Below, one piece after another: positions 14,947-29,890 of a stretch of DNA of 42,488 nt. Location: IMG/VR virus record IMGVR_UViG_2874945390_000011; one strand, given 5' to 3'. A program made the translations under genes and the position numbers. The notes beneath the pieces are model-generated. The model did no database searches, had not been told where the DNA came from, and saw only the letters and a list, made by a program, of their open reading frames with translations. This stretch comes from a virus. Taxonomy: Duplodnaviria; Heunggongvirae; Uroviricota; Caudoviricetes. The stretch's first letter is position 1; each line of letters begins with the position of its first letter.

Positions 14947-14967
14947 GTATTAAAACTCCCCGAGAAC

Positions 14968-15390
14968 CTAGTCAATCTTGCCGCAGTCAAGCACCCACGG
15001 CATCGTATTACCGGTTTTAGCGTTGGCGTTATCCGGTTGTTTCTGGAACGCAACACTGCGTGCCGTGATGATGTCGCCGCTGACCTTGTTTCGGATCACA
15101 ATAACGTTATTCCCCCATGTGGCAGAAGACTGGCTCTGTGCGTTATACGCCAGCGACAATTTTTTATTTGTCGGTGATGTCTTCAGAAGGTTAACGGTAA
15201 TCGTCCCGCTTTTATCTGCATGGAGACTGTGCATCACTTCGCCATCAGCACCGATGGTCATGGTGTTTTTAGGACCGCCCATCGCAACCACAATCCCCTC
15301 TTCAGAACTTGCCGAACCGTACCCGAGGTCAATCGAACCGGTCGGCCCGGTCAGCGTCGCAGTGACATCCATAAAAGAATAGGTAGACAT
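14968..15390 (-). CDS. tail tube protein
   Basis: 140-aa ORF between sheath and chaperone genes; positional assignment. Confidence 0.55.
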   Translation of the reverse strand: MSTYSFMDVTATLTGPTGSIDLGYGSASSEEGIVVAMGGPKNTMTIGADGEVMHSLHADKSGTITVNLLKTSPTNKKLSLAYNAQSQSSATWGNNVIVIRNKVSGDIITARSVAFQKQPDNANAKTGNTMPWVLDCGKID

Positions 15391-17158: not shown

Positions 17159-17477
17159 ACGCTGTATACGGGTCGACGAAAGTCACACGATAATCACGGC
17201 CCTGATACGTCACGATATCGGCATCACGGCCAGTCTGTCCCTGCGTCAGTCGCTCAGTCGTCACAATCAGAATTGCACCACTGATTACCTGCCCGGCCTG
17301 CATACGACGGTTTTCCAGAGAGCTATCAACAGTAACGACTCCGGCAAACTGCTTTTTAACTTCGCTGTCGCTGCCGATCACATCCTCATCCACCGTTTGC
17401 ACACGGCGTGTTACCCACAAATTGAAGTCGCAAAAATCGGGGTCAAAAAGCACATCTGTTACATCAAGAGTCGGCAT
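17088..17477 (-). CDS. hypothetical structural protein
   Basis: 129-aa ORF in head-tail joining region, co-oriented and tightly packed. Confidence 0.4.
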   Translation of the reverse strand: MPTLDVTDVLFDPDFCDFNLWVTRRVQTVDEDVIGSDSEVKKQFAGVVTVDSSLENRRMQAGQVISGAILIVTTERLTQGQTGRDADIVTYQGRDYRVTFVDPYTAYGAGFVQAHCELLPFDGGIPVEQ

Positions 17478-18018
17478 CTTTATCCCTCACAACATGGGTA
17501 ATCGCTCTGCGATATTGCCCGGTGTCAATTAATGGTTTCGCCAGTTCGGTTCCCGGAGATTCGCCAGCAGCACGCCGGGCAAGTTCCAGTGTTGCCCCCT
17601 TGCGCCCCCGACGAGCCCGGGCTTCAACAGTACTGTCAGCAAGCAGCGTAAAGCCGGTAATGGTCATGTAACGCCTGACGCCATTAGCGGCCAGTGTTCC
17701 GGCACGGTTGAGTGCGCTTTCTGCTCCCGCAGCATTACCATCAAGTGCAGCCTGCGCCGCGGCTTTGAGCTGCGGCACCGTCTGCTCTTCTGCCGATTTA
17801 ACGCCGGGGACCAGGTGAGGTCGTGGCGGGATGTTCTGCTCTGGTGAGCCGTATTCGTTGAGGTAACCGATGCCCGCATTACCAAACGGAACATCATCCC
17901 GCTCGCTGTCTTCCGAAGGGATGCCGACCAGCACATCTTTTTTGGTTAACGACCTGAGCGCATCCAGAATGGCCTTAGCGTTATCCACCCTCGTTGTTAC
18001 ACCGCTTTTGAAACTCAT
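17464..18018 (-). CDS. hypothetical structural protein
   Basis: 184-aa ORF; 4-nt start/stop overlap with the upstream gene. Confidence 0.4.
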
Positions 18019-18650: not shown

Positions 18651-19592
18651 TTAAATGCCATCAACGTACGAAATGGTTTCTTTGTACACTGGCTCGACTG
18701 CACCCAGCTTGCCGTAGTAAGTGACGATCTGATACAGACCGCGATACTGCACCGGCACGCTCTGAAGCGGAACCAGCGGGTAGCGGACGTATTTTTTATC
18801 GTTGGTGTACGCAACCATGCGATCCTTATTCCCCACACCACGGCCTTTCAGCCATTTAACCGCGCGGATATTCAGCGGAACACCGTTCTGGTGATAGCTG
18901 ATGGTGTTGGTCTGAAGGTACGTCAACAGGGACTGGTTACCTGCAGATGAAACGATGATGCTGGACAACAGAGCAAACTGCTCAGGCGGGATCAGCAAAT
19001 CACGCGGAACCACAGAGTAACCAGAAGCGGCCCACGCATCAGACAGCACCTGGTTAATGCTTGCGCGGATTTCGTCCGGTGTTGAGGTTGCCCACGTTTT
19101 GGCAGCGTTGTTGACAGGCACGCCGTCCAGGGTAACAAGGCCTTTCAGGTTTAATGCGGAATCGCCAACATATACCTGTTCATCGTTATCCATCTGCCAT
19201 TTCAGTTGCATACCGTCATACTTCTGCGTATCAATCGGGCGGCCGACCTACTGAGCAGCCTGCAATTCTATGACCGTCCAGCCAAGTTCCATCCCCCACA
19301 GGTTCAGCGGATTACCGGATTTGCCGATATCCACGTTCACGCCAGCAATAGCGGTTGAGTCTTTGCCTACCCAGTTTTTTCCATTCGGATTTGCGCCAGT
19401 ACCCGCAGCGGCGAAGCTGGTATTCGTCCAGCTGGAAATGTCATCTGCGATGGAGACGTCTTCACGCAGTTGAATATCGCGGCTCCAGGTGTACCCCACC
19501 AGTGGCAGGTTCAGCGTCTGGTCGAGTCGCTCCAGCTCCCCGATGAGAAAGGCACCAGAGCTGTCAACGGTTGCCTGATCAAAAGTAATCAT
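18651..19592 (-). pseudogene. major capsid protein interrupted by an in-frame amber codon
   Basis: ORFs 19248..19592 and 18651..19211 are in the same frame, separated only by TAG at 19248..19250; read-through gives one continuous protein of about 314 aa in the capsid position. Confidence 0.6.
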
Positions 19593-19603: not shown

Positions 19604-20111
19604 TTAAATCTTCCAGGAAATTTCTGCATTGCCGTCAGCATCACCGGCACCTGTGAATTCAGCGTTGGTCAGCACCACGTTTTTGCCACTGACTGACGTG
19701 GACATGAATCCACCCAGCGGCACTTTGATGGATTCATCAGTGGATGACGACAACGTATACCGGATCGCCTTTTTTGATAGTGCTGGCATCAAAATCAGAA
19801 CCGAGATTAACGGTCACGTAGCCACGCTTCATGGCGTCGCCCGGGAAGTTCTTGCCTGTTCCCACCTGGCGAACCATGTCCGGCTGCGACGTGGTCGGAT
19901 AAGGGCGCACGTAGATCCCCTTCACCTTGTCTGCGGTATCACCATCTGCCAGCGGCACGAAAAAACCGTCATCATCGTATTTACCAGCCAGGCCATAGGC
20001 AGCGAAGGCGTTATCGGATTTAAGGACCACCGGTTCGACGGTTAAGTCCTGCGGGCGAGAGACAGCCCCGGCAATGCCAACAGGCATCCGGTACAGAAAT
20101 ACATTATTCAT
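19604..20111 (-). pseudogene. small head protein, apparently frameshifted
   Basis: ORFs 19737..20111 and 19604..19792 overlap in different frames and together fill the gap between scaffold and capsid genes. Confidence 0.4.
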
Positions 20112-22121: not shown

Positions 22122-23439
22122 TCTCGATGTCCTCGTCGGTAATGGATGCCCCGATGCCGGTTACGTCAGAATTTTCTCGCAAATCAGTCATAGCGGCTTT
22201 CAGTGTCATCAGACCATCACCCAGCGCCGTACTGATTGCGTTGGTGGTGTTTAACGCCACCGTTGAGCGATCGACATCAGACATTTGCCAGAGCGGGTTA
22301 AACTCAAACGTGAAATCGTCCGGCAGCGGCTTGCCAAGTTCCGAACGATGCATGATGTCCAGTATCCGCCGCACAGGAAGACGTAAACGCCTCTCCTGCA
22401 ACGAACTGATGCGATCGTAATAGTTGGCAAGGTCTGCATCACCGGTAGAAAATCCTTTCGGGGACTGTCCGAACAACCGCACCAGTGGGATACCAACAGC
22501 GCCACTAATCTGTTCTGCAAACTGCGAAAGGATGTCATCCAGACCACTGAAGCTGTACTGATGGGTTTCAAACTTATCCCGCGAGTCCATGAGCGTCATG
22601 CCTTCATTACTCTGGAACTGTCGAATCAGGTCGATATTCTTCAGCAACGCTTCATACGCAGGACCACCAAGTGCGATAAGCTCGCGTAGCTTCTCCACGC
22701 TGTAGGTACGCAAATGCGCCTTGTAGACCAGCTGCGCCGCGCCGACAGTAGCGCTGTCGAACGCGGTAAGACGATCCCAGATACGCTCTACAACCGACAT
22801 TCCCCATTCGTTCTCGGTCATCTTCTGCTGAAATGGCAACGTGACGCCATCAAAGCGAATCAGGCGACTGTGATGAATGCGCCAGGCAGGAATTCCCGTT
22901 GCTGTGGTCACCACATCGTAAAACTCAGGTTTACCCAGGTCCGGCCCCATATCTTTAATGCGGCGGGTCAGTGCCGGGTCGACCATCCAGCGGTCGAGCG
23001 GGAGAATCCCCTTAAACTTGCCCTTACCGATGGTTTCGGGTCGCAGCGGGGTCATTGGTGCCTGCCCCTCAATCATGATGAAACCCACCGCGCCGCCGTA
23101 GAGGCGCGACCATTTCAGCACGTCATTCAGCGCATCCCAGATTTGCAACTCATCCAGTTGTGATTCGAGAATGCCACGATCTTTTGCATCAATTTCCGAA
23201 GTGATGCGAATGCCTTTGCGGGTCATATCATCCGGGATAGCATCGACTGCTTCGCCGATGATCCAGGATGAACGATAGGACCATTCCACCAGCATGCGGT
23301 TACGACTGGTGAAATTAGCCCGGTAGGTGGATGCTGAGTGCTGGTTAGGTGTCTGCATCCCTACGCGGGCAATAAAATTCTCATAACCATCAGCTGTGGC
23401 CTGCACAGTTCGCCGCAGGGCTTGTTTGTTTCGTGCCAT
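21973..23439 (-). CDS. portal protein
   Basis: 488-aa ORF directly after the terminase large subunit with acidic C-terminal tail; positional and compositional assignment. Confidence 0.7.
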   Translation of the reverse strand: MARNKQALRRTVQATADGYENFIARVGMQTPNQHSASTYRANFTSRNRMLVEWSYRSSWIIGEAVDAIPDDMTRKGIRITSEIDAKDRGILESQLDELQIWDALNDVLKWSRLYGGAVGFIMIEGQAPMTPLRPETIGKGKFKGILPLDRWMVDPALTRRIKDMGPDLGKPEFYDVVTTATGIPAWRIHHSRLIRFDGVTLPFQQKMTENEWGMSVVERIWDRLTAFDSATVGAAQLVYKAHLRTYSVEKLRELIALGGPAYEALLKNIDLIRQFQSNEGMTLMDSRDKFETHQYSFSGLDDILSQFAEQISGAVGIPLVRLFGQSPKGFSTGDADLANYYDRISSLQERRLRLPVRRILDIMHRSELGKPLPDDFTFEFNPLWQMSDVDRSTVALNTTNAISTALGDGLMTLKAAMTDLRENSDVTGIGASITDEDIENAEDEAPPGIGEPDDEPQEPSGGNPVSNQPTQDSEGGRRHRKWSLRWFK

Positions 23440-24943
23440 CAGGCCTGTCTCCCCAACTGTTCCCAGATATCCAGCGATGTATCGATTGGCGCGAAGGCCA
23501 TAATGAATGCATCAGCAACGTTTGGTGACGGTATCTCGCGTTTTGCGAGGTCTTTTTTACTTTCGACCATCACACGTCCGTTACGGTCGAAATCACGATG
23601 AGGTGTTGTCAGTTCCAGTTTCAGCTTTTCAAGCAACGGACAACGAGAATCTATGCTGATCAGCTCATCCACAGGATACTGTTCTCCGTTGTTAATGGCG
23701 TTAAACGTATTTCTGAAACGGTCAGCCACCATGCCTGAGCCTTAAGATTTGCGAAAAAGTCTTTGTTGGGGATGCCGTTGTACTCGTCATCTGGCTCATG
23801 CACACCAGCACCGGCGTTAAACCTCTGGTAATTCACACGTCGCGCGTATGCGTTCTCGCTCTTCCGGTCAGCGTTAATTTCAGAGAATTTAGCACCGGCA
23901 GACGCACCAACACCGATAGAGTCGTAAACAATATCTGCTTCACGCTCCAGCGCCGCCTGATAAGTACGCTGGCAGCTCTTCAGTAATTCATCTTCTTTGG
24001 CCTTCCATTCGTCGGCCCAGAAAACAACGGATCCGTGACGGTAAACGTTAGCGCACTTATCTGTACCACTGTCAGCCACGTCAAAGCCAATACGCTTTCT
24101 TCCACTGGGTTCGAAATTTAACGTTTTGTGCGCATCCACTGCGGCTTCTATCCAAGACAGTTTGATGATTGTCGCATCATCATCAGACTCCGGAACGCCC
24201 TCATACACATGTTTAAAACCATCCGGATCACGGCGTCGCGCCGCGTCGATAACCTTAAGCATGGTGTCAGACAGAAACGGATTTTCGTCATAGTTAATTT
24301 TGCGGATGAGAGTGCCTTCGGGCGGATCAACAACGAAGTTGCGCCAGACGAAATCAGTAACAAGTCCGGGGTTGAATATGAACCAGCATTCCGAACCCTC
24401 TTTACGGATCGTTGGCTCCAGAATTTTCCACTGGTATTCCGTCAGTGCGTGGGCTTCTTCCAGCCACAACACATCGATCCCCTCCAGTGACTTAATTTCT
24501 TCGATGTTGCGCCATAATCCATAAAAAACAAATTCCGAGCCAGTAACCCGGTTAATGATTTTGTTGTTCAGAATACGGAAACGGTGCCGCAGACCAAACC
24601 TGTCTATCTGAATTTTGAGCAGGGTATACACCGACTCTTCGATTTTATTCTGGATCTGACGGGCACAACAAAAACGCAGGGTGTATTTATTCGACAGAAA
24701 TATGGCAATGCCAGCGGCATCCCATGATTTTGACGATGACCGACCACCATAAAGCACTTTGTTACGTGCCCGCATAGTCCAGAAACTACGTAAAGCCGGA
24801 TTCAGCGTCGGTTTGGATGTCAGAGTAGAAGTCATTGAGGTCACGCTCTCCATTGCCATCATCAATACCTGCATCACGGCGAAGACGATCAGCCTCCAGA
24901 GACACCTTATCAGTGGCGGCCTTGCGGTAGGCTGTATCAGCAA
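23439..24943 (-). pseudogene. terminase large subunit, split by a frameshift
   Basis: ORFs 23660..24943 and 23439..23732 overlap in frames offset by 1; the junction AQAWW / VADRFRNTF reads like one continuous terminase of about 495 aa. The listed start is TTG; true start probably internal. Confidence 0.7.
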
Positions 24944-25532
24944 ATATTTTTCCTACCGTCGCAAGCGTGCCAACGATGGACTCAATACGAACTGTATTGC
25001 GCATCATTGCTTTCTCGGCGGCGCTGATATTTTCAATCAGCATCTTCCTTTCCTGGTCCCCATTAGCATCTTCCAGCGACACCAACCACCGACCAATATT
25101 CTCTGCAGCGACAAGGTTGTTAGCACGAAGGCGAAATAATTCGTCCTCGAGCGTCAACGCTTTAGCGTCCTCTATCACCTCATCTTTGAGCAGAAGGCGA
25201 CGGGCATAACCACCGTGTTTTAATGCCTGCTGGTTACCGGGTTGGAATGGGTTAGTCGGGGGATCGGTACGCATTCCGCGTATCGGTTTCGTATCCGGTG
25301 TAGATTCTGTTTTTAGTTGCGTACTTTTTTGTGTAAGGCCAGTAATGGCAGGCTTTCTGCTGGTACGCACTTTCCTTTTTTGCGTACCATTGCCACTGCG
25401 TGCCCAACCAAGCTTTTTGGCCCTCTTCCTGATAGCCCCTTCTGTAACGCCGTATTTCTCGCCTATATCACGGAGGCTAAGGACTCCGGCCCGGTATGCC
25501 GATTAGATGGCCTCCCAGTCCGGTTTTGCCAT
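24786..25532 (-). pseudogene. terminase small subunit with premature stop at codon 10
   Basis: ATG at 25532 gives MAKPDWEAI then TAA (25503..25505); the same frame continues SAYRAGVLSLRDIGEKYGVTEGAIRKRAKK (HTH) into the 24786..25370 ORF with GNxxALKHG motif. No ATG, GTG or TTG between the TAA and the HTH. Confidence 0.6.
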
Positions 25533-26239: not shown

Positions 26240-26809
26240 ACTGCCCATAAAAAGCTCTTGCGAATCCAGCTTCCCCCATTCCTCTGACAACAGAATCTGA
26301 TTTGAAGGATAATGAGTAAAATTACCGCTACCCCCAAGGCATTGGATCCAGATGTACTCCTGAAGCATTCTCAATGCTGTCTGGTCGCTGATGATTCCGT
26401 CCCGGATACCGAGAACGTTTCGTCCAGCAACTGGAGAGAGTTCGACGGTGGCATCATTGCCCATGCCGGAGGCGCTGGAGGTTTCGGCTGAGGATGGCAC
26501 AGGGCATTTTCCTTTGACGAGCACCCGACCACCATTATCAAGCTTGCGCCGAAGAGCATCATTTTCAGCTTTCGCATCAGCTAACTCCTTCGTGTATTTA
26601 GCATCGAGTGCATCAGCATCACGCTGGCGCTGCTGCATGTCAGTAATGGTTGCGTTCGCCAGCTTCAGTTCTCTTGCGTTTTTGTCGCGCTGCTCTTTGT
26701 AGGTAATGGCGTTATCACGGTAATGATTAACAGCCCATGACAGGCGGACGATGATGCAGATAACCAGAGCGGAGATAATCGCGGTGACTCTGCTCATTGC
26801 TGCCCCCAC
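26189..26809 (-). CDS. i-spanin Rz
   Basis: N-terminal 110 aa closely parallel recalled lambda Rz ([17 protein letters not shown]...[11 protein letters not shown]...[19 protein letters not shown]); about 50 codons longer than lambda Rz at the C-terminus. Confidence 0.75.
26371..26577 (-). CDS. o-spanin Rz1 lipoprotein
   Basis: Embedded in the +1 frame of Rz; lipobox-like VVGC then Pro-rich [11 protein letters not shown], as in lambda Rz1. Confidence 0.7.
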
Positions 26810-27291
26810 AAACAGACTTCACGCTCAATCTCACGACGGGTCATCAGCCCTTTCCATTGCTTACCGCCAGCATATGTCCAGCGACGTAGCTGGTCACATG
26901 CGCCTTTGATATCGCCCTGGTTTATTTTGCGAAGAAGCGTCGATGTTCTGAAATTGCCAGCGCCCACGTTGTAAACGAACGAGTAAAGAGCGCCGCGCGT
27001 TGTTTCCGGTATATCGACTTTGATGTACGGGTTAATTTGTCTGGCGACAGTGGCAAGGTCTTTATTCAGGAGAGCTTTGCATTCTGCTTCGGTATACGTT
27101 TTACCAGGCATGATGTCTTTTCCGGTGTGTCCGTGACATACAGTCCATACACCAATGATATCTTTGTATGGTATGTAGCTGACACCTTCCAGACCATCGT
27201 TACCACCTGGGCCAGTGATTAACACAGATGCTATAGCAACAGCCCCGCCACCAATAGCAACTGCAACAGCCTTGCGTAATGATGGCGACAT
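26794..27291 (-). CDS. SAR endolysin (phage 21 R-like lysozyme)
   Basis: 165-aa ORF nearly identical to recalled R21: Gly/Ala-rich N-terminal signal-anchor-release segment followed by a lysozyme catalytic region. Confidence 0.85.
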
Positions 27292-28185: not shown

Positions 28186-28260
<75 letters not shown>

Positions 28261-28263
28261 ATA

Positions 28264-28339
<76 letters not shown>

Positions 28340-28341
28340 GC

Positions 28342-28418
28342 TGGCCCACCACCGAGGACTCGAACCTCGCACCGTCAACTTAGAAGGTTGATGCTCTATC
28401 CGGATGAGCTAGTGGTGG
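28342..28418 (-). tRNA. tRNA-Arg (anticodon UCU)
   Basis: CCACCACUAGCUCAUCCGGAUAGAGCAUCAACCUUCUAAGUUGACGGUGCGAGGUUCGAGUCCUCGGUGGUGGGCCA; 7-bp acceptor stem, anticodon stem UCAAC/GUUGA, loop CUUCUAA. Only 1 nt from the next tRNA, so the 5' boundary is uncertain. Confidence 0.65.
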
Positions 28419-28419
28419 T

Positions 28420-28496
28420 TGGTGGCCCTTGCTGGACTTGAACCAGCGACCTGGCGATTATGAGTCGCTCGCTCTGACCAACTGAGCTAAAGGGCC
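28420..28496 (-). tRNA. tRNA with anticodon CAU (Ile2-like, ileX/ileZ type; Met not excluded)
   Basis: GGCCCUUUAGCUCAGUUGGUCAGAGCGAGCGACUCAUAAUCGCCAGGUCGCUGGUUCAAGUCCAGCAAGGGCCACCA; closely resembles recalled E. coli ileX; anticodon loop CUCAUAA. Confidence 0.7.
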
Positions 28497-29488: not shown

Positions 29489-29552
29489 TGAGGTAGCCTG
29501 AGTTTAACGGACACTCCTTCCTGAAATAGAATGGCATCAGAAGGAGCTAATA

Positions 29553-29855
29553 ATGAGCAGAAAAACCCAACGTTACTCTAAAGAGTTCAAAGCCGAAGCT
29601 GTCAGAACGGTTCTTGAAAATCAACTTTCGATCAGTGAAGGCGCTTCCCGATTATCCCTTCCTGAAGGCACTTTAGGACAATGGGTTACCGCCGCCAGAA
29701 AAGGGCTCGGTACTCCTGGTTCCCGCACGGTGGCTGAGCTGGAATCTGAAGTTATGCAACTGCGTAAGGCTTTAAATGAAGCACGACTTGAGCGAGATAT
29801 ATTAAAAAAAGCAACAGCGTATTTTGCACAGGAGTCGCTGAAAAATACGCGTTAG
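29553..29855 (+). CDS. IS600 OrfA (IS3-family transposase N-terminal HTH protein)
   Basis: 100-aa ORF with HTH and leucine-zipper-like C-terminus typical of IS3-family OrfA. Confidence 0.85.
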   Translation: MSRKTQRYSKEFKAEAVRTVLENQLSISEGASRLSLPEGTLGQWVTAARKGLGTPGSRTVAELESEVMQLRKALNEARLERDILKKATAYFAQESLKNTR

Positions 29856-29890
29856 TCGAACAATGGCGACAACAATTCCCTGTTGAAGCG

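Follow-up and report, generated by a model that had tools for sequence, protein, structure and literature searches.

The window, that is, the whole 42,488-nucleotide stretch of viral DNA analyzed here, contains a prophage with a single amber codon inside its major capsid gene (Table 1). Specifically, a 942-nucleotide frame on the minus strand, comprising 314 codons including the terminal TAA, harbors a single in-frame TAG. The stop divides the gene into two open reading frames encoding 114 and 186 amino acids. Both, together with the 12 codons that lie between them, belong to one shared frame whose restored product is 313 residues long. An earlier note, prepared from the letters of the DNA alone, had described two same-frame open reading frames, one TAG, 12 sense codons, and a listed methionine, and this layout and its coordinates are correct on the minus strand.

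Table 1. Features of the interrupted capsid gene and of the surrounding prophage, by position in the window.
Feature	Position	Strand	State or basis
PEBP-family gene (PF01161), left edge of the window	1..477		
ipaH E3-ligase effector, 587 aa, LRR and NEL domains	1057..2820		intact
Tail-fibre gene	~3931		4-bp deletion, frameshift
Tail tube gene (DUF3277/PF11681)	14950..15390	-	second CAG>TAG, at codon 141 of 146; stop at 14968..14970
Major capsid protein gene (DUF2184/PF09950), HK97-type	18651..19592	-	pseudogene; Pfam, structure match, homologues
C-terminal capsid part, mechanically listed 186-aa ORF	18651..19211	-	opens at internal ATG 19211, then 185 codons to TAA
12 sense codons VGRPIDTQKYDG between TAG and next ATG	19212..19247	-	ordinary capsid coding sequence, identical to homologues
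Amber codon TAG, codon 115	19248..19250 (read 19250..19248)	-	ancestral CAG (Gln)
N-terminal fragment ORF, 114 aa	19248..19592	-	ends in TAG at 19250..19248
Head cement/decoration protein gene (Gp24-like, PF22758), adjoins capsid gene upstream	19604..20111	-	frameshifted
Large terminase gene (TerL)	23439..24835	-	frameshift; one copy of tandem 7-mer GGTGGCT lost at ~23731
Gene in small-terminase position (TerS-like, unnamed; 254 aa in relatives)	24786..25532	-	GAA>TAA and deletion
Rz-like gene	~26335		1-bp difference
IS3-family element (IS600 by annotation of matches in relatives), inside DUF1364 gene	29489..30752	+	3-bp overlap of flanks
hokD	~32060		2-bp deletion relative to FDAARGOS_944, frameshift
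cro	36186, 36192		1-bp and 4-bp deletions, frameshift
DDE_3 transposase insertion (IS630-family-like), 1.14 kb	37504-38645		intergenic or early region
Second IS600-type element	40396-41659		replaces gam/recE region

The true start of the gene, at 19592, is preceded by the ribosome-binding site AAGGA, whereas no Shine–Dalgarno sequence lies upstream of the internal ATG at 19211. Thus, the methionine that opens the 186-residue open reading frame does not mark a real start and corresponds to Met128 within the intact protein. The 114-residue fragment is the only product expected from the real start, and it keeps approximately 42 of the approximately 241 residues covered by the PF09950 capsid domain model.

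The gene belongs to a SEN34-like myovirus and specifies its DUF2184/PF09950 major capsid protein. When codon 115 is read as Gln, the restored protein matches the Pfam family PF09950 (Major_capside) with 294.7 bits over residues 73–313, compared to a curated cut-off of 26.8 bits, and PF09950 matches are found in each of the two fragments as well. A solved "Major capsid" chain, 8hdt_A, is matched at E=4.8e-19 over residues 72–312, and the Salmonella phage SEN34 homologue is annotated as "major head protein." The whole 942-nucleotide frame aligns end to end and gap-free to intact genes in 338 of 5,426 complete Escherichia coli genomes, and thus the joined frame is no chance juxtaposition. The best of these matches are 99.8% identical (2 mismatches) and are annotated "DUF2184 domain-containing protein." Nucleotide identity of the capsid gene is 98.2% to phages vB_EcoM-606R2, 689R2, 611R5, and 683R1, and 78.7% to phage SEN34. 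The local gene order (TerS-like, TerL, portal, Mu-F-like protein, DUF2213, cement protein, capsid, connectors, sheath, tube) fits this assignment, and the order of the head module is the same as in SEN34 and 606R2. Functional members of the family possess an uninterrupted frame; the window copy has TAG at codon 115. With PF09950 matches in both fragments and intact homologues that run from end to end, the earlier proposal that one amber codon breaks a capsid gene is borne out.

The earlier note had suggested aligning intact homologues to learn which residue occupies the position of the stop. Codon 115 was compared by DNA alignment of the window with three E. coli prophages, phage vB_EcoM-606R2, and phage SEN34, and it is CAG, encoding Gln, in all five. 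The same codon is present in the prophage of E. coli FDAARGOS_944. Retrieval of loci by an exact CAG-containing 30-mer added Shigella flexneri SFBU1023, E. coli ECMA0423, and 12 metagenome contigs, and 13 of these 14 loci possess the complete 313-residue frame. One human gut metagenome contig, OXEB01000165, carries CAG at codon 115 and has an open frame that stops after 204 residues; this may be an independent truncation in another prophage copy. The exact 30-mer with TAG has zero matches in contigs from a collection of one genome per species and zero in metagenome contigs, whereas the control 30-mer with CAG has 2 and 12 matches, respectively. Given that every intact relative examined has CAG and that the TAG 30-mer is without matches in either collection, the lesion is a derived C>T transition converting CAG to TAG (G>A on the plus strand at 19250). 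A change at one point does restore a capsid-sized frame, as had been noted: with CAG at codon 115, the product is 313 residues long.

Beyond the TAG, one nucleotide, at plus-strand position 19311, separates the gene from its nearest intact relative; it appears in the DNA alignment as AAC>AAT. Because only two nucleotides differ between the two genes, substitution patterns within the capsid gene cannot show relaxed selection. The sequence context of the capsid amber is GCAGG, which is not a Dcm site.

The TAG allele belongs to Shigella boydii. The window is 100% identical to CP026836.1 over 20,345 bp, and the exact 114-residue product is on record in the corresponding NCBI assembly GCA_002950135.1 (5.1 Mb). 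CP026836.1 is listed as S. boydii (PMC12817139). The exact 114-residue product also exists in the Logan assemblies of SRR4787860, ERR2287283, and ERR200294, of which ERR2287283 is S. boydii serotype 9 isolate 9355. All four assemblies, which derive from independent read sets, have T at the amber site. In the 30-mer searches of genome and metagenome contigs, the allele was not found outside this one S. boydii lineage.

The capsid amber is one of about a dozen inactivating lesions in the prophage. We located the others by mapping the annotated genes of the E. coli FDAARGOS_944 prophage, the closest relative (99.4% identical over 27.5 kb), onto the window. Relative to that prophage, no fewer than 10 additional disruptions are seen in the window. 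The lesions in other genes of the element comprise a further two nonsense codons, six or more frameshifting indels, and three insertions of IS elements. In the cement gene, a +1 A insertion at ~19745 yields 508 nucleotides versus 507 in relatives and splits the gene into open reading frames of 124 and 62 residues. In the TerS-like gene, the GAA>TAA change lies at codon 10 (25505), accompanied by an 18-bp deletion at ~25391. The 7-bp deletion in the TerL gene looks like slippage. The two IS600-type copies are in opposite orientation, and this inverted pair could mediate inversion of the early region. The direction of change is clear for the cement, tube, and TerL lesions and for both TerS-like lesions, as phage 606R2 and/or other prophages share the FDAARGOS_944 state. 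Since so many other lesions reside in the same prophage, reversion of codon 115 would not revive the phage.

The ancestral sequence at the tube amber, GAC CAG GTT, contains CCAGG, a Dcm methylation site. Dcm sites are classic 5-methylcytosine deamination hotspots for amber mutations. The FDAARGOS_944 prophage has a frameshift of its own, in a 184-residue head-tail gene (26557–27110 in its locus), and the window counterpart at 17464–18018 is intact. Thus, decay is independent in the two lineages.

The assemblies also capture the order of events. The SRR4787860 assembly contains both ambers, in the capsid and tube genes, along with the frameshifted cement gene, and its TerL (467 residues) and TerS-like (254 residues) genes are intact; the TerL 7-bp deletion, the TerS-like GAA>TAA change, and the 18-bp deletion are all absent. 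Since capsid, tube, and cement lesions accompany intact terminase genes in this assembly, decay was stepwise, and the capsid lesion belongs to its oldest layer.

Several further features accompany the structural genes. The PEBP-family gene at the left edge of the window is taken to be host ybhB. At the same prophage end as the window's ipaH, FDAARGOS_944 has a different ipaH N-terminal part, and only the 3' 783 nucleotides align. A homologue of the tRNA-modification enzyme QueH (epoxyqueuosine reductase) is carried as cargo at 32350–33015 on the minus strand; it is intact and 100% identical to the FDAARGOS_944 copy. A cluster of four tRNA genes at 28186–28496, also on the minus strand, lies between a gene for a Q-like antiterminator and the lysis genes. 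Its members are a CAT tRNA (Met by ARAGORN and tRNA-Ile in the annotation of the relative, hence Met/Ile2), Arg-TCT, Thr-TGT, and Gly-TCC, and each of them reads codons used rarely in E. coli. The cluster resembles the ileZ-argN-argO cluster of Stx phages.

In the hok/sok module (31969–32292, minus strand), the sok antitoxin RNA matches Rfam at 117 bits. Given the 2-bp deletion in hokD and the retention of sok, the toxin gene is inactivated and the antisense RNA is kept. At 39182–39370 on the plus strand, Rfam matches to isrK (64.8 bits) and C4 antisense RNA (76.3 bits) sit in the 5' part of an Ash/Rha-type regulatory open reading frame (39131–39952). This segment, only ~88–92% identical to the relative and with many small indels, looks like a P1/P7-type anti-repressor control module within an otherwise lambdoid early region.

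We consider the interrupted gene to be, with a probability of roughly 0.93, an ordinary pseudogene that arose by a spontaneous CAG-to-TAG change at Gln115 in a decaying SEN34-like, ipaH-carrying S. boydii prophage. Observed directly are CAG as the ancestral codon, the lesions elsewhere in the prophage, the order in which lesions appear across assemblies, and the occurrence of the allele in independent isolates. The notion is that a spontaneous C>T transition turned the Gln115 codon into TAG and that, in a prophage freed from selection for virion production, the mutation was presumably fixed by drift. Translation from the real start would then end after residue 114, before most of the capsid fold. 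Consequently, functional capsid protein would not be made, and no capsid would be built. Decay began with the ambers in the capsid and tube genes and with the cement frameshift and continued with the terminase lesions, and the IS insertions and the fibre, cro, and hokD frameshifts are likewise part of it. The prophage persists as a carrier of ipaH.

Other explanations account for parts of these data. Because an error could account for one base that differs from relatives, we considered that the stop was introduced by sequencing or assembly of the deposited genome. However, the same T occurs in three further assemblies from independent read sets and different projects (SRR4787860, ERR2287283, and ERR200294). 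This recurrence marks TAG as a fixed allele of a lineage and leaves error with practically no credence. Another idea starts from the fact that the two open reading frames are in the same frame, with an ATG 12 codons past the stop: ribosomes could read through the stop in a programmed manner, or the gene could be deliberately split to give functional polypeptides of 114 and 186 residues. The earlier note had held that such a pair, if it were the normal arrangement in related phages, would count against a broken gene. However, the stop is not conserved, and all relatives possess one 313-residue open reading frame. Moreover, a 101-nucleotide stretch of RNA that surrounds the TAG and extends downstream shows no more stable folding than shuffled sequences (z = +0.66), Rfam reports no element at the TAG site, and the split point falls within a single capsid domain model. 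The internal ATG, as described above, also lacks a Shine–Dalgarno sequence. Readthrough or a functional split is thus vanishingly unlikely. Reassignment of TAG was likewise considered and rejected: there are only two in-frame TAG codons, each at an ancestral CAG, and ydaV terminates in TAG. The 39 intact genes translate cleanly under code 11, using TAA 22 times, TGA 16 times, and TAG once (in ydaV).

Suppression of the stop by the host was also considered. A supE-type amber suppressor tRNA that inserts Gln, if the host had one, would allow the wild-type capsid and tube proteins still to be made at full length. In keeping with this idea, the nonsense codons of the capsid and tube genes, which are the oldest two point lesions, each arose by a change of CAG to TAG, so Gln insertion would restore the exact wild-type proteins, and TAG is a rare natural stop in the element (1 of 39 intact genes). 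Against it, none of the four tRNAs in the window has a CUA anticodon (theirs are CAT, TCT, TGT, and TCC). Furthermore, a suppressor cannot mend the cement frameshift, which is as old as the amber, nor can it undo the loss of 7 bp from TerL, the TAA in the TerS-like gene, the frameshifts in the fibre gene and cro, or the IS insertions. In the genome and metagenome contigs searched, the TAG allele is without occurrence outside one S. boydii lineage. We therefore judge suppression to be most improbable. Selection might instead have removed head functions and kept the contractile tail and lysis genes, moving the element toward a tailocin. In the structural region (3000–25532), disruptions affect 4 of 7 head and packaging genes, as against 2 of 22 genes for the tail (Fisher p = 0.018; the comparison was chosen post hoc, after the data had been seen), and the sheath, tape measure, baseplate, spike, holin, and lysozyme genes are intact. 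Nonetheless, the tube gene has a premature stop, the tail-fibre gene and cro are frameshifted, a late-region gene is split by an IS, and non-head genes such as hokD decay too. This route to domestication is accordingly very improbable. A broader proposition, that the S. boydii lineage carries or once carried a natural Gln-inserting suppressor that made the prophage conditionally functional for a time, or else that loss of head genes marked the start of tail domestication, also strikes us as improbable. The ordinary pseudogene remains our favored reading.

For annotation, the consequence is that the two open reading frames become one capsid pseudogene with an internal stop and that the prophage should be treated as defective. 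The finding matters little beyond annotation. The locus offers a small but clean and datable example of how a Shigella prophage decays step by step and keeps its virulence cargo, ipaH. Lesions common to several isolates could be used as markers of the lineage in strains like S. boydii serotype 9.

The closest known phage counterparts of the prophage are SEN34 (Brunovirus) and phages vB_EcoM-606R2, 611R5, 689R2, and 683R1, which have the head and tail gene order and the DUF2184 capsid gene in common with the window. SEN34 is a plaque-forming temperate myovirus with lambdoid early genes, and vB_EcoM-606R2 is deposited as a phage genome and is also termed an induced phage. In SEN34 and the Escherichia phages, the 313-residue capsid gene is uninterrupted; in the window, its codon 115 is TAG, and other lesions are numerous.

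Phages with laboratory amber mutations in their head genes are conditional lethals that are grown on supE or supF hosts. At the molecular level, the lesion described here, a CAG>TAG change within a major capsid gene, is no different, and in principle, a Gln-inserting suppressor could rescue it. Unlike the laboratory ambers, it is natural, fixed in a clinical lineage, and situated beside non-suppressible lesions, with no suppressor in the element. Coulondre and Miller reportedly found C>T amber hotspots in lacI at Dcm sites, CC(A/T)GG. The amber at tube codon 141, with its ancestral CCAGG, fits that pattern; the capsid amber, in GCAGG, does not and is simply a C>T transition.

In the chromosome, ipaH genes usually sit amid genes of prophages and ISs (PMC8072062). 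Defective prophages of Shigella and E. coli, including remnants that carry ipaH, are like the one in the window: lambdoid or myovirus elements that combine ISs, frameshifts, and nonsense codons with an intact virulence cargo gene. Compared to those cryptic prophages, nothing essential differs, and the window copy is comparatively young, as it has kept nearly its full length and shares 99.4% identity with a relative that is largely intact. The interrupted capsid gene is nothing new in kind; it follows a pattern well known from the defective prophages of Shigella and E. coli.
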